A stretch of 30,928 nucleotides of DNA from a virus (Duplodnaviria > Caudoviricetes), in the IMG/VR virus record IMGVR_UViG_3300044667_000096, positions 1 through 30,928 of that record, one strand, 5' to 3'. Position 1 is the stretch's first letter. Each line of letters starts with the position of its first letter. Shown piece by piece: positions 1 through 25,312 of this stretch. A program made the translations under genes and the position numbers. The notes under the pieces were generated by a model. That model was not told where the DNA came from and did not search any database. It saw nothing but the letters and a program-made list of their open reading frames with translations.

Positions 1-487
1 GGGGACGGAAGGGCGAAGGGTGGGGCCGGGACGGGGTGGGAAGTCGGGTTGGCGAGACGAGAGCCGGGCAGGCGCTGGGTAGTCGGGCGGGCTGGGAAGG
101 TTGGCCCCGGGTTGGCGTGCGTTGGGCTGGGGAGTCGAGACGGAATGAAGGAGGGACGGATAGGCGCGGGCAGGGCTGTCGGGCAGGGGCGCGGCGGCGT
201 AGAGGCGTGTCGAGGTGTCTCGGGCCGGGAGGGGAAGTCGATAGGGGTTGGGCAGGGGAGGGAAGCGCAGTCGGGACGGGATGGACGGCAGCAGGTAGGG
301 GCGGGTTGGGATGTCGGGGTGGTCTGGAGTGGTGGGACTGCGCACAGGTCAGGGGCGTCGGATAGGTGGGGGCTGCGAAGCGCTGGGAAGGGGAGGAAAG
401 TCGGGACGAGAGGGGACCGGGATGCTGCGGGTTGGCGTGGGATGTCGGGCGGGGGCTGAGGCGAGCAGGATTGGCAAGGGAAGTCAT
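1..487 (-). repeat. Pentamer-periodic array, (C)GAC + (NNCCC-like)n on the minus strand; candidate non-coding guide-RNA array, truncated by the window edge
   Basis: Plus-strand GTC(G) anchors at 43, 82, 134, 178, 209, 237, 270, 313, 357, 400, 444 and 483. Between them the sequence parses into 5-mers that nearly all start with G or GG, e.g. 270-312 gtc gggac gggat ggacg gcagc aggta ggggc gggtt gggat. Strand is inferred from the upstream operon. Confidence 0.85.
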
Positions 488-492
488 CGCGC

Positions 493-1047
493 TCAGGCCG
501 CCTTGACAGCCGGACCCGACCCCGGGGAGCGCCCGGTGATCGAGTCGTAGAGCTTCTGGTACTCGGCCTCGGTGAACACGTCGCAGGTCTTGCGCTTGCC
601 GACGCGCTTGCCGACCGCCCGGTGGAACGCTTCGAGCATCCGGGCGTTGGCGGCCGTCTGCTTGTAGCCGTCAGCGACGAACAGGTGGTCAGCACCGGTC
701 ATGTCGCCGAGCGTCCGGCGGGTTTCTCCTTCGTCGATGACGTAGCGGACCGTCGCGAACATGGACAGCGCGGCGTCGTTGCCCGCCTGTGCCGCGTCGC
801 TGGCCTCCTTGAACCGGCGGGCACCGCCGCGCGAACGGGCAGCCGAACGCTCGTTGCGGTCCCGGTCTCCGATCGCCCGCGTCAGGAAGTGCACCGCGCC
901 CTCGCGCAGCCACCCGTCCAGCAGGTCCGGGTCGGTCTCCAGAAGGTGGGCGTGCAGCTTCTCGGCGAGTGCCGGGGCGACAAAGTCCCCGTCAGCCATT
1001 GCCTCGGCAAGGCGGTCGCCCATCTCGGCGATGTAGTCGCGGGCCAT
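493..1047 (-). CDS. Hypothetical phage protein, 184 aa, immediately upstream of the array
   Basis: Protein-like composition; ATG overlaps the antirepressor stop (TGATG); no family recognised. Confidence 0.85.
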   Translation of the reverse strand: MARDYIAEMGDRLAEAMADGDFVAPALAEKLHAHLLETDPDLLDGWLREGAVHFLTRAIGDRDRNERSAARSRGGARRFKEASDAAQAGNDAALSMFATVRYVIDEGETRRTLGDMTGADHLFVADGYKQTAANARMLEAFHRAVGKRVGKRKTCDVFTEAEYQKLYDSITGRSPGSGPAVKAA

Positions 1048-1766
1048 CACCGCTTCACCGCCTGGAACGCCTGCTCCAGCACGTCGGCCGGGTAGGTGTT
1101 GACGGAGCCGAACGTGGCGTCCTGACGCTTTACGGGCTGCTCTCCGCCCTCGCGCAGGATGCGACCTGCCCGCGTGCCGACCTTGATCAGGTACGGCCGG
1201 TCGGTGGGGCGGTCGGTGAGTTTGGCGTAGCCGAGTGCGGTGAACCAGTCGTGCCGCCCCTCGATCGCCGAGACCTTCGCCTCGACGGCGGCGATGCGCT
1301 GCCGGTCCTCACGGATCGCGGCGATGATGCTCTCCGCGAGGGCGAGATGGTCGGTCGACTTCGCAGCCACCTCAGCCCGCTCGCCGAAGAAGTGGTTGCG
1401 CAGGGCGCGAGCCGCCTCGCGCTGATAGGTCACCACCACTTCGCGAGCGCTGGCCTTCACGCGGGAGGGCTGGAGGCGAGCAAGCCAGACGGCGAAAGTC
1501 TCCAGCGTCACGACCATGGACTTGCGGGCCTGATCGTCGCCAGGCATCTGGATTGAGATGAACTCAATGCAGGCCGTCTGATCTGCGGAAAGCTTCGCGT
1601 ACTGGCCAGCCCAGTTCAGGCCGAGCAGGTCGGACACCGGCTTGAGGATCACCATCGGCTCGTCGCCGATCCGCACGCACGGGATCGCGCCGCTGAGGAA
1701 CGGGACGGCGATGACGTTCGACTGCCGCTCGGGCTCGCTGCTGGGGAACGGGATCAGGTCACTCAT
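1047..1766 (-). CDS. Phage antirepressor (P22 Ant N-terminal-like domain plus C-terminal domain)
   Basis: VPFLSG...PMVILKPVSDLLGLNWAGQYAKL...WLARLQPSRVK...YQREAARALRNHFF fits the P22_AR_N pattern; GAGGGGAG RBS before ATG 1766. Confidence 0.85.
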   Translation of the reverse strand: MSDLIPFPSSEPERQSNVIAVPFLSGAIPCVRIGDEPMVILKPVSDLLGLNWAGQYAKLSADQTACIEFISIQMPGDDQARKSMVVTLETFAVWLARLQPSRVKASAREVVVTYQREAARALRNHFFGERAEVAAKSTDHLALAESIIAAIREDRQRIAAVEAKVSAIEGRHDWFTALGYAKLTDRPTDRPYLIKVGTRAGRILREGGEQPVKRQDATFGSVNTYPADVLEQAFQAVKR

Positions 1767-2127
1767 CGCCGTGGCTCCCCTCGGGGCCCGACACCGCCGG
1801 TGCCTCCACAGATGGGACAGGCGATCGGGTCGCCCCCGTCGTCGCCGGGGTTTGGGACCGTTCCGCGCCCGTTGCATTGGCCGCACTTGGGCACGAGGTC
1901 TCCGGGATTTCGGGGTAGGGGAAGAGGTTGGCGACCTGTTGGCCAATTTCGGCCGCGACGCGAATGCGGGCCTCGTCGCCAAGCCCCTTCTCCCCGCGCT
2001 CGAAGCGGGCGAGGTGGGAGACGTGGATGTCCGTTCGTCGAGCTAGCTCGCGGATGGACAGATCCAAAGCCTCCCGCGCCCTCGTGAGGCGGCTGCCCCA
2101 CTCGACGTTCAGGTCGGTGCTTTGCAT
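1759..2127 (-). CDS. Cro-like XRE-family HTH regulator
   Basis: GSRLTRAREALDLSIRELARRTDIHVSHLARFERGE is a typical XRE HTH; divergent from the repressor; low-complexity C-terminal tail. Confidence 0.85.
   Translation of the reverse strand: MQSTDLNVEWGSRLTRAREALDLSIRELARRTDIHVSHLARFERGEKGLGDEARIRVAAEIGQQVANLFPYPEIPETSCPSAANATGAERSQTPATTGATRSPVPSVEAPAVSGPEGSHGDE
1763..1894 (-). CDS. 43-aa DnaJ-type zinc-finger microprotein nested in the cro tail
   Basis: MPKCGQCNGRG...CPICGGTG has two CxxCxGxG motifs; GGAG RBS before GTG 1894; stop overlaps the antirepressor start (ATGA). Confidence 0.65.
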   Translation of the reverse strand: MPKCGQCNGRGTVPNPGDDGGDPIACPICGGTGGVGPRGEPRR

Positions 2128-2133
2128 GCTTGG

Positions 2134-2162
2134 AGCGTCGCACGTCGTGCGACGTACGTCAA
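2134..2162 (-). promoter_or_regulatory. Leftward early promoter for a leaderless cro mRNA
   Basis: Minus strand TTGACG-17 nt-GACGCT with an extended TGn, then 6 nt to ATG 2127. Confidence 0.7.
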
Positions 2163-2228
2163 GCGTCGCACGGAAAACGACAGTGACCAGCAGGGATGTC
2201 CCGATCGGGCGTCGCACGGCGTGCGACA
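2136..2228. promoter_or_regulatory. Three palindromic operators of the lysis/lysogeny switch
   Basis: CGTCGCACG-T-CGTGCGACG at 2136-2154 (perfect), CGTCGCACG-G-AAAACGACA at 2164-2182, CGTCGCACG-G-CGTGCGACA at 2210-2228. Confidence 0.85.
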
Positions 2229-2237
2229 CTGGGTCCC

Positions 2238-2687
2238 ATGTCCACCAGAGGAAGACGAAGCGAACCGACTCCCGCAGGACGGTGGCTCCGGCAGCAACGG
2301 GAGCGGCTCGGCATCGCCACTCAGGCCGAACTAGACCGCCGTCTTGGATGGAACAAGGGCACGGTCAACAACTACGAGACTCGCGACGTGATGGTCTCCG
2401 ACGAGAGGGCCGAACAGCTTGCCGAGTTGTTCGGCCTCGACATCATCACGGTCCGTCGCAACCTCGGCCTATGGGTGCCAGGTGAGGATGTGGGCGCCAC
2501 GTCTAACGCCTTGCCCGTCCCTACTGATGAGAAGTTGCGGCAATCCGGACTCGCCCCTGAGACGGTGGAAGCATTGTTGGCCATGCGCCGCAGCGTCGAA
2601 AGGTTCGTCGAACAGCGGAATGAATCTGCGATTCGCAGGGCCAATCGCGTATTGGAGGCGCTCGATGAGGAGCAGGACGCGGGCTGA
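2238..2687 (+). CDS. Immunity repressor, XRE-family HTH (CI-like)
   Basis: GRWLRQQRERLGIATQAELDRRLGWNKGTVNNYE HTH; divergent from cro and co-oriented with the integrase; TGcGACACT -10 lies 7 nt before the ATG (leaderless). Confidence 0.85.
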   Translation: MSTRGRRSEPTPAGRWLRQQRERLGIATQAELDRRLGWNKGTVNNYETRDVMVSDERAEQLAELFGLDIITVRRNLGLWVPGEDVGATSNALPVPTDEKLRQSGLAPETVEALLAMRRSVERFVEQRNESAIRRANRVLEALDEEQDAG

Positions 2688-3071
2688 TGCAAGTGCATCG
2701 CCCAGGTCAGAGCCGTTGGAAAGTTCCAAAACAGACCCGGCATCCAATAACAACCACTGGGTTCCGGGCCGCCGTAATGCACGTGCATCCCAGAGAATCT
2801 CGGACATGAACACCGGGTGAACTGGAACCAGATTCGGTGCACATCAACCTACTGACCTGCGCAGACGTGCCAACAGGGTTGACTTTTGTCACTATGTGAA
2901 ATGCCGTCGACGGGGCCGAAAATGCAGCGGGTGTTGTTTTCGCGACACACCGATACATAATCATCCCCACGGTGACCGAATCCACGGAGGATCACGGACC
3001 GTCACAACTGAAACGAGGGGTACGAGGCGTCCCGCCCCGCGCGCTCCCAGGCTAAGGACTCAACGACGAGA

Positions 3072-3085
3072 CCCCCCCCCCCCCC
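3072..3085. repeat. C14 homopolymer tract
   Basis: 14 consecutive C, 35 nt upstream of ATG 3121. Confidence 0.9.
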
Positions 3086-3120
3086 GCAATTCTGAGAGTT
3101 GGAAGGGGCCTGGAACTCTC

Positions 3121-3534
3121 ATGACACATCACACCCTGAGCGCGCATACGGACGGTGACGACATCGACCCTCGCACCGTGGCAAGGGTGCTGCGCCGCGC
3201 GCTCGGCGGACTCGGATCCACGCTCGCCGTGGTCGGCCTGGTCGCCCTCTCCTTCGGCCTGCACGAGGAGGCCGTCGAACTCCTCCTCATCGGATGTACC
3301 GCGCTCGGGTGCAGCACCGTCGCCGTTGGCATCACCCTCACCGTCTACCTCATCGAGTTGGTCGTGCGCGGCCAGGCCGCCATCCGCACGGAGGTGCACG
3401 AGGTGGCGCAGGAGCAGGAGCAGCAGGCCGAGCGCCTCACCGCACTGGAGGAGGGGGAGCGTGCCCTCGCGGGCGCCGTGCGGACCATGAACCGCCCGCC
3501 CGACGAGCTGGGCGGGCGGCGGCGTCAGAGCTAA
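3121..3534 (+). CDS. Membrane protein, two TM helices plus coiled coil
   Basis: Hydrophobic LGGLGSTLAVVGLVALSFGL and LLLIGCTALGCSTVAVGITLTVYLI followed by an E/Q-rich helix; GGAAGGGG upstream. Confidence 0.75.
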   Translation: MTHHTLSAHTDGDDIDPRTVARVLRRALGGLGSTLAVVGLVALSFGLHEEAVELLLIGCTALGCSTVAVGITLTVYLIELVVRGQAAIRTEVHEVAQEQEQQAERLTALEEGERALAGAVRTMNRPPDELGGRRRQS

Positions 3535-3538
3535 GACT

Positions 3539-3573
3539 CCCACCGGCGGGTATCCCGCTCGCCCGCCGGTGGG
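3539..3573 (+). terminator. Hairpin upstream of the integrase (terminator or attenuator)
   Basis: Perfect 12-bp stem CCCACCGGCGGG/CCCGCCGGTGGG with an 11-nt loop; no U tract. Confidence 0.55.
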
Positions 3574-3592
3574 CCCCAACATGGAGACAAGC

Positions 3593-4924
3593 ATGCCCTC
3601 CTACCGCAAACTCCCCAGCGGCCTATGGCAGGCCACCGTGCGCCTGCCGTCCGGGAAGCGGATCACTGAGACCGACAAGCTCAAGTCCGTGGTGAAGGCC
3701 TGGGCGATCGAGCAAGAGGACGCGATCCGCCGCGGCGTATGGCGAGACCCCCGAGCCGCCCGGATCACGTTCGGCGAGTGGTACCAGCGATGGTGGGCGG
3801 CGCGCGTCGTCGAACCGGAAACTCGTCGTGGCGACCGCGCGCAACTCACGTACCGCATCCTCCCGCAGTGGGAGGAGTGGCCACTGGCCAAGATCAAACG
3901 GATGGACGTCCAGGGATGGATACGGCAGATGCAGGCCGACGGCATTCCCGCCGCGACGATCCGCCGCACCTACAACCTGTTCAGCTCCATGATCGGCGAC
4001 GCCGTCCTTGAGGGTCCGATCGGAGAGTCGCCATGCGTGAAGATCGCACTGCCGCCCACGGACCCGAAGCTGCCCGCATGGTTCACGCGCGCGCAGGTCG
4101 ATCGGATCCAGGTCGAGCTGCCGCGCACCCACACGGTCATGGTCGAGCTGATGGTGTGCTCCGGTCCGCGCTGGGGCGAAGCCGCCGCCGCTGTCGGACG
4201 GGAGCGTGACGACGGCCAGGGCAACGTCATGGACTGGACGCGGCGCAAGCTGCGCATCACCGGCACGCTCACCCAGTACGGCGAGTGGAAGGAATACCCG
4301 AAGAACTCTTCCTCGCGGGGCGAGATCCCCGTTCCGCCGCACGTATGCGACATGATGGCGGCCTTGCTGACTGGGCGCGAGCCGGACGGGTTCGTCTTCG
4401 TGGCCCGGCGGCGCTCACCGAAGACGGGAACCTTCCCGACGCTGTCAGGGGCGAACTGGCGAGGCGTCTGGTATGCGGCGATCGACGCCGCCAACGAGAA
4501 GATCAGGGAGCAGAACCGCAATCTGCCGGAGGGTCGGCGGCTCGCGCCCGTACCGCGGTACGACCCGCATGACTGCCGCCACACGGCGGCTTCATGGCTG
4601 GTGCAGGCCGGCGTCCCGCTCTACAACGTGCAGGCGCTACTGCGGCACGCTTCCTTCGTGACGACGCAGCGCTACGCGCACCTGGCGCCTGACCGCAATG
4701 ACGCCATCGCCGCCGGGTGGGCGAAGGCGCGACAGGACGCCACCCTCATCGCGGTGGCCGACGAGGCGACCGGCGAGCCGGAGCAGTTCGAGGAGTTCCT
4801 GCGCGCCTGCCTCCGCTGGTATCGCGACGACCCCGACCGCGCGCTGGCCGCGCTCGCCCCACACTGGGGGCCGCGCCTCGCGGCGGTCGACGGGCGCACG
4901 CTCAAGATCATGACGCACAGGTGA
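3593..4924 (+). CDS. int: Tyrosine integrase
   Basis: Catalytic set SGPRWGE (R), YPKN (K), HDCRH, LRHAS, TTQRYAHL (Y); N-terminal arm-binding segment RKLPSGLWQATVR; GGAG RBS before ATG 3593. Confidence 0.95.
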   Translation: MPSYRKLPSGLWQATVRLPSGKRITETDKLKSVVKAWAIEQEDAIRRGVWRDPRAARITFGEWYQRWWAARVVEPETRRGDRAQLTYRILPQWEEWPLAKIKRMDVQGWIRQMQADGIPAATIRRTYNLFSSMIGDAVLEGPIGESPCVKIALPPTDPKLPAWFTRAQVDRIQVELPRTHTVMVELMVCSGPRWGEAAAAVGRERDDGQGNVMDWTRRKLRITGTLTQYGEWKEYPKNSSSRGEIPVPPHVCDMMAALLTGREPDGFVFVARRRSPKTGTFPTLSGANWRGVWYAAIDAANEKIREQNRNLPEGRRLAPVPRYDPHDCRHTAASWLVQAGVPLYNVQALLRHASFVTTQRYAHLAPDRNDAIAAGWAKARQDATLIAVADEATGEPEQFEEFLRACLRWYRDDPDRALAALAPHWGPRLAAVDGRTLKIMTHR

Positions 4925-5136
4925 CGCACGGCCCGTACAGAGACGGACGAATCTGGGCGTTGACCTGGAACGCACCCATCTCGGACGCCTTCCCGATGAC
5001 GCGCCACGTGGAACTCCTGGCGACGCTGGTCAGAGGCTGACCGGTGCTGTGACCTGCACAGTTGCTTGACTGCACGGGACTGGGCGGGACAGGAAAGGAC
5101 TCGGATTCTCACCCTCTTGACGCACGAGCGACGCAC
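4911..5136. other. Putative attP: paired arm-type sites flanking a core that matches an RNA methyltransferase gene 3' end
   Basis: YGACGCAC direct repeats at 4911, 4922, 5118 and 5129 (11-bp spacing in each pair); 4984-5040 reads DAFPMTRHVELLATLVRG*. Confidence 0.75.
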
Positions 5137-5252
5137 GATCATGGCTGGTCGATCATGGCCGGATAGTGACAGCCGCCTCACTAGGTGAACCCGCAGCGAC
5201 GGTCGGGACGTCTCACGCTCGTCCCCCGCCGCACCGACCGAACCGAAGGACC

Positions 5253-5882
5253 ATGATGCGTTACCTCGCGGCCGCCCTCGGCCTCGCCATCACCCTCAGT
5301 CTCGCGGCATGCGGGGGAGGGGAGTCCGACGACACCGGCGCCCATGGCGCCCCAGTGTCCCCGGCAGCCGCCAAACCTGCGGCGCCCGCAAACCTCACCT
5401 GGGGCCAACCCGCCGAGGTGACCGGCTACAACATGACGAAGATCCGCGTCACCCCGCAGGCTGTCCTGTACCACCGTGGCCCGTACACCAGCGGCCTGGA
5501 GGGACCAGAGAACGGCTGGTACGCCATCATCTCCGTGAAGGCCGAGCCGCTCAGCAAGCCCGACTCGACGGCGGGTGGCGCGGGTGGGGGCGGCTTCCAG
5601 TGGCGGGGCTCGGGGCAGACGCTCGCGGAGACGGACGGGAACACGAGTAGCACACCGTGGGTCGGATCGGCTCCCGAGTTCGGCGTGGACGCACCGATCG
5701 AGCCGGGCGACCCGCGCGAGGGCATCTTGACGTTCGACATCCCGAGCAAGACTGGCGGGCGGCTGGTCTATCTGAGCCCGGAGGACATGACCATCACCGC
5801 ATCGTGGGACATCCCCGCGGCCGACCAGGGGACCACGCCTGGCATCGTGAAGGTCCGCAAGCGGATCAAGCTGTTCAGCTGA
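5253..5882 (+). CDS. Lipoprotein (DUF4352-like beta-sandwich, tentative)
   Basis: Signal peptide with lipobox LAAC, Pro/Ala linker, and IEPGDPREGILTFDIP motif; GAAGGA RBS. Confidence 0.8.
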   Translation: MMRYLAAALGLAITLSLAACGGGESDDTGAHGAPVSPAAAKPAAPANLTWGQPAEVTGYNMTKIRVTPQAVLYHRGPYTSGLEGPENGWYAIISVKAEPLSKPDSTAGGAGGGGFQWRGSGQTLAETDGNTSSTPWVGSAPEFGVDAPIEPGDPREGILTFDIPSKTGGRLVYLSPEDMTITASWDIPAADQGTTPGIVKVRKRIKLFS

Positions 5883-5891
5883 GGCACGTCC

Positions 5892-5921
5892 CCGCCCGTC
5901 GGCCTGCCGGTCGGCGGGCGG
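5892..5921 (+). terminator. Hairpin between the convergent lipoprotein and GntR genes
   Basis: 13-bp stem CCGCCCGTCGGCC/GGTCGGCGGGCGG with two G-U pairs and a 4-nt loop. Confidence 0.65.
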
Positions 5922-5928
5922 TCGGCTG

Positions 5929-6675
5929 TCAGTCCACGGGGATGACGTACGCCAGCTCGTACCGGTCGACGGGCACGACGATGTCCGCGGTCTCCACCGG
6001 CCGGTCGCCGGAGTACGTCCGCTGGATCACGGTGACGATCGCGCCGATCGGCTCGTCGAGCAGGTCCGCCTCCTCCGCGGTCACGGTCCGCGCGGTGACG
6101 ATCTCGGTTGCGAGCGTCACCGTCTGCCCGATAGCCGCCATGCGCGCGACTACGCCCACGCCCGCGTGCGGCCCGGCCTCCGGCAGCATCACCGGCGTTC
6201 CGCGGGTCAGGGCGAGCGGCTCCCACGAGGTGGACAGCATGACGGGCTGGCCGTCGGCGAGGAAGACGTAGCGGGTCATCATGACCGAGTCGCCCTCGCT
6301 GATGCCGAGTCGTTCCGCGACGGCCGGTGACGCTGTGGTCGTCTCCGAGTTGGACCGCCACGCCCCGGCGCGGCCCTGCGACTCCATGTCCGCGCGGAAC
6401 GGCGAGGACGCCCGGCCGCGGGCTTCTCGATACCAGGAGCGGGTCAGCCGTGTGACCTGCGGACGCTGGCGGACGTACGTGCCGGATCCGGAGCGGGCCT
6501 GGACGTAGCCCTCGGACACGAGCAGTCGGACGGCCTGGACGGCGACCGCGTCGGAGACGCCGTAGCGCTGGCGGAGCTGTGGCCGTGAGGGGATCTTGTC
6601 GCCGGGCGCAAGCGCCCCGTTGATGATCTGTTTCCGCAGATCATCCGCTATGCGCTGGTATGCGGGCTGCGTCAC
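5929..6675 (-). CDS. GntR/HutC-family regulator with UTRA domain
   Basis: PAYQRIADDLRKQI...PGDKIPS...YGVS...GSGTYV winged HTH plus a UTRA-type C-terminus; GGAG RBS before GTG 6675 (TTG 6693 is an alternative start). Confidence 0.92.
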   Translation of the reverse strand: MTQPAYQRIADDLRKQIINGALAPGDKIPSRPQLRQRYGVSDAVAVQAVRLLVSEGYVQARSGSGTYVRQRPQVTRLTRSWYREARGRASSPFRADMESQGRAGAWRSNSETTTASPAVAERLGISEGDSVMMTRYVFLADGQPVMLSTSWEPLALTRGTPVMLPEAGPHAGVGVVARMAAIGQTVTLATEIVTARTVTAEEADLLDEPIGAIVTVIQRTYSGDRPVETADIVVPVDRYELAYVIPVD

Positions 6676-6718
6676 GGGGACTCCGGTGGCCAAGGTGGAA
6701 CGGATTCAGGGCACAAGC

Positions 6719-6761
6719 TTGACAAGCTGTGCGCACGGGTTGCAAGCTGTGCGCACAGCTT
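6719..6761 (+). promoter_or_regulatory. Promoter overlapped by two palindromic operators, probably GntR sites
   Basis: TTGACA (6719)-18 nt-CAAGCT; AAGCTGTGCGCACGGGTT at 6724-6741 and perfect AAGCTGTGCGCACAGCTT at 6744-6761. Confidence 0.7.
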
Positions 6762-6804
6762 TCTTGTTACCCAGCGTCAAGGCGTGATCGCTTGGGGGTG
6801 CCCT

Positions 6805-7194
6805 ATGGAATGGTCCCAGACCTACCCCGGTCTGCCGTCCATGGTGCCAGCTATCAGAGCGTTCGTGCGAGGGCTCCTCGACGGGACGCCCCGACAGGAC
6901 GACGCGGAGCTGATCGCGAGCGAGTTCACCGGGAACGCGCTCCTGCACACCCCGTCCGGCCAAGACGGCGGCGAGGTGTCCGTCACCGTGGCCAGTCGGC
7001 CAGGGTGGGCGCGCATCGCCGTCAGTGACTCCGGAACCGGCGACTGGGTCCGCCCATTGACTGCGGCCGACGCCCTCGGCGACTACGGCCGCGGCCTCGT
7101 TCTCGTTGAGAGTCTCGCGGACAAGATGGGCCACGAGATCGGCGAGGCCGGGCAGACCATGTGGGCTGAGCTGACATGGAGCGTGGAGCCGTGA
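6805..7194 (+). CDS. HATPase_c_2 (RsbW/AbaA-like) ATP-binding protein
   Basis: N box ELIASEFTGNALLH, G1 box VSDSG, G2 box YGRGLVLV, and MWAEL. Confidence 0.9.
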   Translation: MEWSQTYPGLPSMVPAIRAFVRGLLDGTPRQDDAELIASEFTGNALLHTPSGQDGGEVSVTVASRPGWARIAVSDSGTGDWVRPLTAADALGDYGRGLVLVESLADKMGHEIGEAGQTMWAELTWSVEP

Positions 7195-7400
7195 CCGGGC
7201 CCCAGTCGTCCGAGCCGCCGAAGGCCACCGAGGTTCAGCACGCGGCCGCCGCGTACGGCGCGTTGATGAATGCCATCGTGCCGGAGTCGCAGTACAACCG
7301 GGGCGCGCGAGAGAACCCGGACAAGATCGCCTACTTGGGCAACATCATCGAGCGCGCCGCCGCCCGACGCCGCGAGCGGTCGCGCCAGGTGGACACCTAG
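7191..7400 (+). CDS. Small hypothetical protein, 69 aa
   Basis: GTGA overlap with the upstream stop; GGAG upstream; helical composition. Confidence 0.6.
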   Translation: MTGPQSSEPPKATEVQHAAAAYGALMNAIVPESQYNRGARENPDKIAYLGNIIERAAARRRERSRQVDT

Positions 7401-24772: not shown

Positions 24773-25312
24773 TCAGGAGGCGTCAGCCTCCAGATATGCG
24801 AGGACTCGGCGGAACATCTCCGGCGAGTCGCCGAAGCGGCCGAGCAGGAGGTTGTGCTCTGGACAGAGCAGTCCGCGAACACGGCCAGTCTCGTGGCAGT
24901 GGTCGACGTGCAGGTACGTCCGATACCTACCTGCGGTCAACTCCTCCGGCGTCACACCGCAGAGGGCGCAGCCGCCACCCTGCTCAGCGAGGATGCGGTC
25001 GTAATCGGCGGCACCGATCCCGTACTGGCGGCGAAGGTGCTGGTCACGCGCCTTGCCGGAGAGTTTGCGGCCTTCTTCCTTGCATTGCCGGGAGCAATAC
25101 GCGGCTGTCGCCTTGAGTTGCTTGGGTCGATACGACTTCCCGCATGTCACACAGGTGCGTTCCTCATGCTCTACAGGCGGCGGCAGTTCCCCGCGGTGGT
25201 ATGCCGCAAAGCAAGGCTTGCACCACGTGCCCCGCTTGCCCCGATAGGACGGCGAGAACGCCAGCAGTGGCCGGTCTTGCTTGCATCGGCCGCACCTCTG
25301 TTCTGATCCCAT
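24773..25312 (-). CDS. Endonuclease VII-like (His-Me finger) nuclease with N-terminal zinc fingers
   Basis: YGIGAADYDRILAEQGGGCALC...LHVDHCHETGRVRGLLCPEHNLLLG; N-terminal CGRC/CKPC and CVTC/CSRQC pairs. Confidence 0.9.
   Translation of the reverse strand: MGSEQRCGRCKQDRPLLAFSPSYRGKRGTWCKPCFAAYHRGELPPPVEHEERTCVTCGKSYRPKQLKATAAYCSRQCKEEGRKLSGKARDQHLRRQYGIGAADYDRILAEQGGGCALCGVTPEELTAGRYRTYLHVDHCHETGRVRGLLCPEHNLLLGRFGDSPEMFRRVLAYLEADAS

Follow-up and report, generated by a model that had tools for sequence, protein, structure and literature searches.

The stretch of DNA analysed here (the window) is an entire virus record of 30,928 bases. It carries an integrase, cI, cro, an antirepressor, a terminase, a portal, a capsid protein and a lysin, and represents a temperate phage. 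Its left end (positions 1–487) is occupied by an array of pentamers at the end of a presumed early operon, and the coordinates of the array, of its decoded units and of the adjoining genes are collected in Table 1. Because the window is the whole record, the array is cut at position 1; an assembly contig identical over positions 1–562 extends 66 nt further.

Table 1 Coordinates of the array, its decoded units and the adjoining genes in the window
Feature	Position	Strand	Remarks
Putative guide array, 12 GAC-led NN-(C)(C)C units	1–485	-	Truncated by contig end; vipr predicted left of position 1
Unit, 7 pairs including one 6-mer step	46–81	-	Antisense FDEPHLY, actinophage terminase Walker B; 14 exact matches in viral contigs
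Unit, 10 steps, longest	85–133	-	No target found; 0 exact matches in viral contigs
Unit, 8 pairs including one 6-mer step	137–177	-	Antisense T[IM][DE]TYA[HQ]L, integrase catalytic-tyrosine motif; viral and metagenome matches
Unit, 8 pairs	273–312	-	Sense INAYARIV in actinophage portal gene; 3 of 7 exact matches are the portal site
First unit, 7 nt past accessory-gene stop	447–482	-	Top local match 13/14 (ALAHFNK), not significant alone
Accessory (vap-like) gene, 184 aa, mostly helical	493–1047	-	Unmatched in Pfam, PHROG and PDB; homologues adjoin 12 of 13 arrays
Antirepressor Ant (P22_AR_N)	1047–1766	-	Overlaps accessory gene start; same presumed early operon
Cro-like HTH gene	1759–2127	-	Heads presumed early operon
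cI-like repressor	2238–2687	+	Divergent from cro

The nearest relative found for the window's terminase is 62% identical and comes from Actinomadura sp. KC216, and positions 2000–6000 gave no match among named phages. Several direct and inverted copies of GTCGCAC/GTGCGAC, likely operators, are present in the gap between cro and cI (2136–2229). Between the integrase and the lysin (5929–7400), a GntR-UTRA regulator lies divergent from an anti-sigma-like HATPase_c gene and a small ORF, and an Endonuclease VII/HNH gene is inserted directly after the major capsid gene (24773–25312).

The model of the accessory protein (pLDDT 91) is mostly helical and resembles no known fold in searches with Foldseek (best E 2.5) and VIA (best Z 4.5), a result short of showing a new fold, and it has no match to vap1 of Escherichia phage SUSP1 (probability 0.2%). 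A homologue search returned 84 matches, self included, and a search of the viral contigs for related loci with this protein returned nothing. No vipr homologue is present within the 30,928-base record, in agreement with the original prediction that no effector gene is visible in the window.

Anatomy of the pentamer array

The five-base period was resolved by autocorrelation of positions 1–487 at lag 5 (z 5.5) and lag 10 (z 3.0), together with longer spacings at lags 39 and 43 (z 2.8 each), as measured against 500 mononucleotide shuffles. A high score for GG at period 5 is confined to positions 1–600 of the contig. GTC linkers at positions 43, 82, 134, 178, 209, 237, 270, 313, 357, 400, 444 and 483 delimit 12 units with lengths of 42 (clipped by the contig end), 39, 52, 44, 31, 28, 33, 43, 44, 43, 44 and 39 nt, and the best parse places 88 pentamers in them. 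These counts reproduce the original prediction of at least 12 units of 28–52 nt, five of them of 43–44 nt, with some 85–90 pentamers in all.

Neighboring units abut via 3–4 nt. Read on the minus strand, each unit consists of GAC followed by NN-s-C-C steps, and the three scaffold positions hold C in 58, 67 and 87 of the 88 pentamers; the three conserved bases claimed earlier for each pentamer are thus unequal in their conservation. A/T makes up 55% of the variable pairs, the contig as a whole having 69% G+C, in line with the A/T richness noticed at the outset. As for the linker, described before as GTC(G), the GTC holds at the 12 positions, and the extra base of the 39- and 44-nt units often belongs to an internal six-base step, one of which occurs within several units. 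Assigning this base to the internal 6-mer rather than to the linker changes the decoded string.

The canonical type II repeat of the VIPR systems, looked for as (YNNGG)x3, is absent from both strands of positions 1–487, and Rfam gave no match to the array, including no CRISPR repeat. A conserved structured 3' tail per guide was not found in the units, the far end of the array lying beyond the contig. In computed folding, the minus-strand array RNA is less folded than 99 of 100 shuffles, and a search of positions 1–2400 for a consensus promoter, such as the cro promoter from which the original prediction has the array transcribed, found none.

Locus order and partner gene in relatives

When viral contigs were scanned with a gapped motif, 34 loci emerged, of which 13 were judged by eye to be true arrays; the remaining 21 matches to the array pattern were dropped as chance or simple repeats. 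A homologue of the ORF at 493–1047 adjoins the array in 12 of the 13 look-alike arrays, and a 220-aa gene with a GIGASRSQGYG loop and a RAMP/Cas7 fold likewise accompanies 12 of them. The order accessory gene, array, 220-aa RAMP gene (here also vipr) is kept in 11 of the 13, and one contig ends inside the array as the window does. Wherever an accessory gene and DNA past the array are both present, vipr is located there (11/11). The RAMP/Cas7-like gene that the original prediction expected beside such arrays is therefore borne out in the relatives, where both genes are conserved neighbors of the array. In Actinomadura sp. KC216 the array is split by the assembly: the accessory gene and the array start lie at one contig end, and the array and vipr at the start of another contig. 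We predict with high confidence, from this locus order, that the vipr gene of the present phage lies just left of position 1, off the record.

A search with the 220-aa family recovered 13 genome loci, mostly from actinomycetes, and 62 viral loci. Among 76 loci (L035–L110), 40 distinct ones have the accessory gene 200–2600 nt upstream of vipr, and 39 of these 40 gaps are C-rich on the coding strand, as expected from the C-rich operon transcript with CGAC punctuation that had been presumed. At the ten junctions displayed, the array runs from near the stop codon to the ribosome site. In 1,490 pentamers collected without a composition filter, positions 1–2 are near even, and the fraction of C at positions 3–5 is 0.54, 0.64 and 0.96. 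The clade family is large, with 1,908 proteins among 8,000 scored, and a count of clusters at 50% identity gave 344 for E up to 1e-30. Four loci (L086, L095, L080 and L263) have 47–64 detected units each, arranged in several blocks. Two divergent members from lower-GC phages (L100:3260–3640 and L101:5850–6310) keep the GAC punctuation with A/C-rich triplets, which suggests the last scaffold C as the fixed letter.

The model of the relatives' 220-aa protein (pLDDT 85.5) finds its best PDB matches in type VII Cas7 and Csm3 (E 1.6e-7). Compared as a profile with four canonical Vipr proteins (SUSP1, LittleE, Ecliptus and phiHSIC), the family reached an hhalign probability of 68% and an E of 4.7e-5 at 17% identity. 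The single protein gave nothing significant against Pfam and PDB sequences, a RAMP profile search returned weak rows only (Cas5/Csm4/Cas7, E 0.04–0.9), and the single-sequence comparison with SUSP1 Vipr had a probability of 2%. Judged by its profile and modelled fold, the array-side gene of the relatives is a Cas7-fold homologue of Vipr. Residues R138, D177 and W178 of SUSP1 Vipr are named, in the available text of a preprint, for reading two scaffold guanines (bioRxiv 10.64898/2026.04.26.720927). In the 17%-identity alignment, R138 is replaced by E in 41 of 72 sequences (E/T), D177 by A in 71 and W178 by S in 58, and R179 is kept in all 72; as mapped through this alignment, the G-reading residues are replaced in the C-rich clade.

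Reading of the variable pairs

Across the family, 979 distinct units were extracted, and those with 6–13 pentamers, 654 in all, were matched against 3.0 Mb of array-masked DNA from phages and prophages. Read with one base skipped after each pair, the units gave 39 matches of at least 24 bits vs 17, 20 and 21 in shuffles (p 6e-4). At the same threshold, contiguous reading gave 17 vs 20, 19 and 15 (p 0.63) and a two-base skip 19 vs 6, 16 and 19 (p 0.15), so that between the gapped and the contiguous spellings proposed originally, only the gapped one is enriched. A three-base skip gave 28 vs 15, 13 and 15 (p 0.005), with two of the top 12 matches array-like; leftover array sequence accounts for this excess only in part. 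In 32 of the 39 one-skip matches, the skip falls on the wobble base of a codon (23 antisense and 9 sense), vs 9, 10 and 11 in shuffles (p 5e-6; 654 guides). A code in which one base, at the wobble position, is skipped after each pair holds across the family, and the NN pairs do spell a gapped target as had been claimed.

Among the top one-skip matches, we recognised what we take to be terminase Walker A (18/18), the vipr motifs KVAEGWLK (16/16) and QGFGRYE (14/14), and motifs of helicases and integrases. Six-base steps decode via their first two bases in two strong cases (21/22 and 16/16). Independently of the target search, the dinucleotide frequencies of the guides correlate more closely with codon positions 1–2 read in antisense (r 0.70) than in sense (r 0.37). 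A search confined to vipr and the accessory genes returned five one-skip matches in vipr vs 1, 1 and 0, with skips of zero and three also at five. The vipr motifs, the most conserved ones of that gene, are matched in other phages (targets L001, L097 and L023) by guides of L013/L048 and L095, KVAEGWLK in antisense and QGFGRYE in sense, and the vipr of L095 itself is matched by one of its guides at 13/14. Different guides from L038 and L035 have a common site in L145 near 11,800 (minus reading), encoding GEIDLIVDK (18/20 and 16/18).

Four units of the window were scanned exactly against the viral contigs. All 14 exact matches of unit 46–81 are in frame as FDEPHLY, one of 16 possible peptides; 13 lie in one terminase gene family (two of them identical) and one in an unrelated protein. 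The pattern was picked after a 12/14 local match, with wobble bases restricted to G/C, and its shuffled control, run once, gave two unrelated matches. The portal match of unit 273–312 is complete (16/16) and lies on the sense strand. The portal and terminase sites occur together in one contig of 5,965 bp, against an expectation of about 2e-4 such overlaps. The two sites are matched on opposite strands, which points to a DNA target. Matches of unit 137–177 were assigned by eye to tyrosine integrases in 14 of 22 viral and 7 of 21 metagenome cases, many of them redundant or from low-GC hosts.

By blastp, the targeted terminase is not significantly similar to that of the window, and the best match of the units to their own 30.9 kb is 13/16. 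From these matches, the units are likely directed not at self but at packaging genes, those for terminase and portal, in an unrelated family of actinophages. In actinomycete genomes, unit 46–81 had no match among 201 (five for the reversed control) and unit 137–177 none among 251; the latter was also absent from 10 terminase-family phages at three mismatches. Five other terminase-family phages contained no site for units 273–312 (the portal pattern being tried at two mismatches) and 447–482. Unit 403–443, in the parse of the original prediction with the first pair dropped, gave four one-mismatch places among those listed for 48 records, about as many as the control. A convincing target is lacking for 9 of the 12 units, including the eight outside the four exact scans, which had no significant match.

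Relation to VIPR systems and the guide strand

VIPR and its non-canonical repeats are already known from preprints of 2026. Type II is described, in the available text of three of them, from Escherichia phage SUSP1 and a Pseudomonas fulva prophage (bioRxiv 10.64898/2026.04.26.720920, 10.64898/2026.04.26.720927 and 10.64898/2026.10.15.759431). The present system resembles it in having a phage-borne two-gene locus, a lone RAMP protein, pentamer guides, a one-skip code at the wobble base, and both-strand targets in rival phages that include other vipr genes. In contrast to type II, the coding strand is C-rich and neither strand contains (YNNGG)x3, the scaffold is NN-(C)(C)C instead of GGY, CGAC joins units of 25–50 nt in which no 40-nt structured tail was seen, and the array lies between the accessory gene and vipr. 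The relatives' Vipr is also distant, and the accessory protein, without a vap1 match, has no assigned counterpart among vap1–6, although the two-gene locus does contain such a gene. Collectively, the features shared with VIPR are the RAMP gene beside the array (in relatives), the accessory gene, the fixed-triplet/NN pentamers, the wobble skip and the non-self targets, whereas three canonical type II features, namely the YNNGG repeat, the structured tail and the G-reading residues (in a low-identity alignment), are missing.

The array is thus related to VIPR, as originally suggested. The further suggestion of a distinct type agrees with the three missing features, but non-canonical VIPR repeats already stand in the preprints. 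Types I and III–VII, the 'staggered' arrays and the NNNGG, YNNNG and NNNNG variants (bioRxiv 10.64898/2026.04.26.720920) likewise have pentamers of related consensus, guides packed without spacers, and phase resets; the text of that preprint, in contrast, describes only G-fixed consensus repeats with 1-nt overlaps. The terms C-rich, Actino and Streptomyces are absent from its text and supplement, and the clade may be drawn in its Figs 5, S17 and S18. In our reading, the GGCAGG-type phase shift of Gordonia phage Ecliptus fits 'staggered' better than the window array does. The COMPASS preprint (bioRxiv 10.64898/2026.10.21.760802), in its available text, lists 21 non-canonical clusters with non-GGY triplets beside Vipr-like folds, termed divergent VIPR. 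They are similar to the present locus in that adjacency and differ in the clusters named (GAC/NN, CAC/NN, WGT/NN and TGH/NN), for which that text gives no targets, strand or punctuation; CCC/NN may be in its Fig. S10. The literature search found no text on C-rich, CGAC-punctuated VIPR arrays, which Figs 5, S17, S18 and S10 of these sources may nevertheless depict. With the Cas7/Csm3 backbone of Class 1 CRISPR (types VII and III-A), the relatives' partner protein shares the RAMP fold and the G-loop, whereas the locus has no CRISPR repeats and no contiguous spacer, and the relatives' neighborhood clusters contain no other cas genes. The direct repeats, contiguous spacers and several cas genes of a CRISPR-Cas system are therefore not found, and contiguous reading is without excess. 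Canonical G-rich VIPR loci were seen in Mycobacterium phage LittleE (L335:2648–3013) and in Ecliptus (L336:1857–2119), so both scaffold types occur in actinophages.

Taken two on and one off, the variable letters find exact counterparts in packaging genes from an unrelated phage family, and the array is on this ground likely the guide-RNA store of a VIPR-type system directed against rival phages, with guides that are probably C-rich. The strand deserves closer weighing. With system and code unchanged, the guide could instead be the G-rich plus strand (G-G-N/NN), transcribed from an antisense promoter, which would make the array an NNNGG or NNNNG variant. The plus strand can indeed be parsed as (NNNNG)n over as many as 12 consecutive repeats, repeats of the NNNGG/NNNNG type are listed in the VIPR discovery preprint (bioRxiv 10.64898/2026.04.26.720920), and the terminus of the plus-strand units, GGGTA-GTC, closely resembles that of the SUSP1 tracts, GGTAGT, which favours the G-rich strand. 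The target matches are symmetric to strand, and the types of wobble mismatch gave no distinction between the two RNAs. A G-rich guide would, however, need a promoter within vipr and directed against it in most loci, and one beyond the downstream end of the operon in others, whereas the guide is co-oriented with vipr in canonical loci, the G-rich tracts of SUSP1, LittleE and Ecliptus all lying on the vipr coding strand (3/3 read). In L079 (1770–2560), L083 (4540–4870) and L089 (4150–4900), a second array faces away from vipr and the accessory gene follows vipr; in all three of these divergent arrays, two of which are closely related, the C-rich strand is preceded by an extended -10 motif (TGnTAnnnT) and a leader with a short hairpin. 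The C-rich strand is also that of the operon, so that vipr would be transcribed through it, and it is unusually unstructured. Together with the replaced G-reading residues, these points make a G-rich guide unlikely, and the C-rich minus strand is probably the guide RNA.

Binding of mRNA instead of, or besides, DNA was also considered, as most of the C-rich guides would pair with a coding strand: antisense matches are in excess (48 vs 17, 22 and 18; p 2e-6) and sense matches not significantly so (23 vs 14, 14 and 22; p 0.12), the guide dinucleotides track antisense codon positions, and the nearest folds are the RNA-targeting type VII and III Cas7. Perfect sense-strand matches, the portal unit of the window (16/16) and the G-loop site of vipr (14/14), speak against it, as does the binding of published VIPR to either strand of DNA (bioRxiv 10.64898/2026.04.26.720920), and we regard it as quite improbable. 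Still more improbable is an orphan array that borrows the protein of another phage, as in satellites; the record does lack vipr, and orphan vrRNAs are published according to the available text of bioRxiv 10.64898/2026.10.15.759431, but the invariable presence of vipr beyond sufficiently extended look-alike arrays and the equivalent assembly break of Actinomadura sp. KC216 argue otherwise. Almost no credence is left for a structural DNA element (G-quadruplex or R-loop, the alternative offered originally), a repeat arisen by slippage or one that encodes protein. In favour of such readings, G makes up 54% of the plus strand, and two minus-strand frames are free of stops over positions 1–492. Against these points, the codon-position G+C of the long plus-strand ORFs is flat (0.72, 0.69 and 0.72) vs that of the neighboring gene (0.71, 0.50 and 0.88); the units differ and yet decode to conserved phage genes; and a structural element explains neither the tight linkage to a RAMP gene nor the target matches.

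Under the preferred reading, a guide store of VIPR type, target sequences of rival phages would be kept two bases at a time, with a three-base scaffold between one pair and the next. Transcription of the early operon would extend across the accessory gene and the array and likely yield a C-rich RNA, and division of this RNA at CGAC into guides of 25–50 nt has, in our estimate, an even chance of being correct. By analogy with the VIPR preprints, the Cas7-fold Vipr would coat each guide as a filament with one subunit per pentamer, the complex may bind double-stranded DNA with two bases on and one skipped, and the likely outcome would be transcriptional silencing of genes for packaging and integration in competing temperate phages.

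A wider reading of the clade is tentative and somewhat doubtful: a VIPR type not yet described but common in actinophages, with scaffold recognition switched from G to C, tail-less guides of 25–50 nt cut at CGAC from the mRNA of their own operon, 10–60 guides per phage, an accessory protein with a new fold, and a coding-strand preference that could extend to mRNA. If true, it would add a second alphabet of scaffolds to the RNA-guided recognition of non-contiguous sequence and provide a test case for the reading of the scaffold by Vipr. Dense arrays of many guides, each far shorter and lacking a tail, would amount to a natural tool for multiplex silencing in actinomycetes, with the decoded targets supplying ready-made assays. 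With 10–60 distinct guides per array, the writing of gapped guides from a target could be tested in comparisons among close relatives. In the named phage collection, the sole match to the clade's RAMP gene is in a phage deposited as infecting Microcystis aeruginosa (L110; PP395641.1, 3717–4047), where a C-rich GAC array lies behind the gene.
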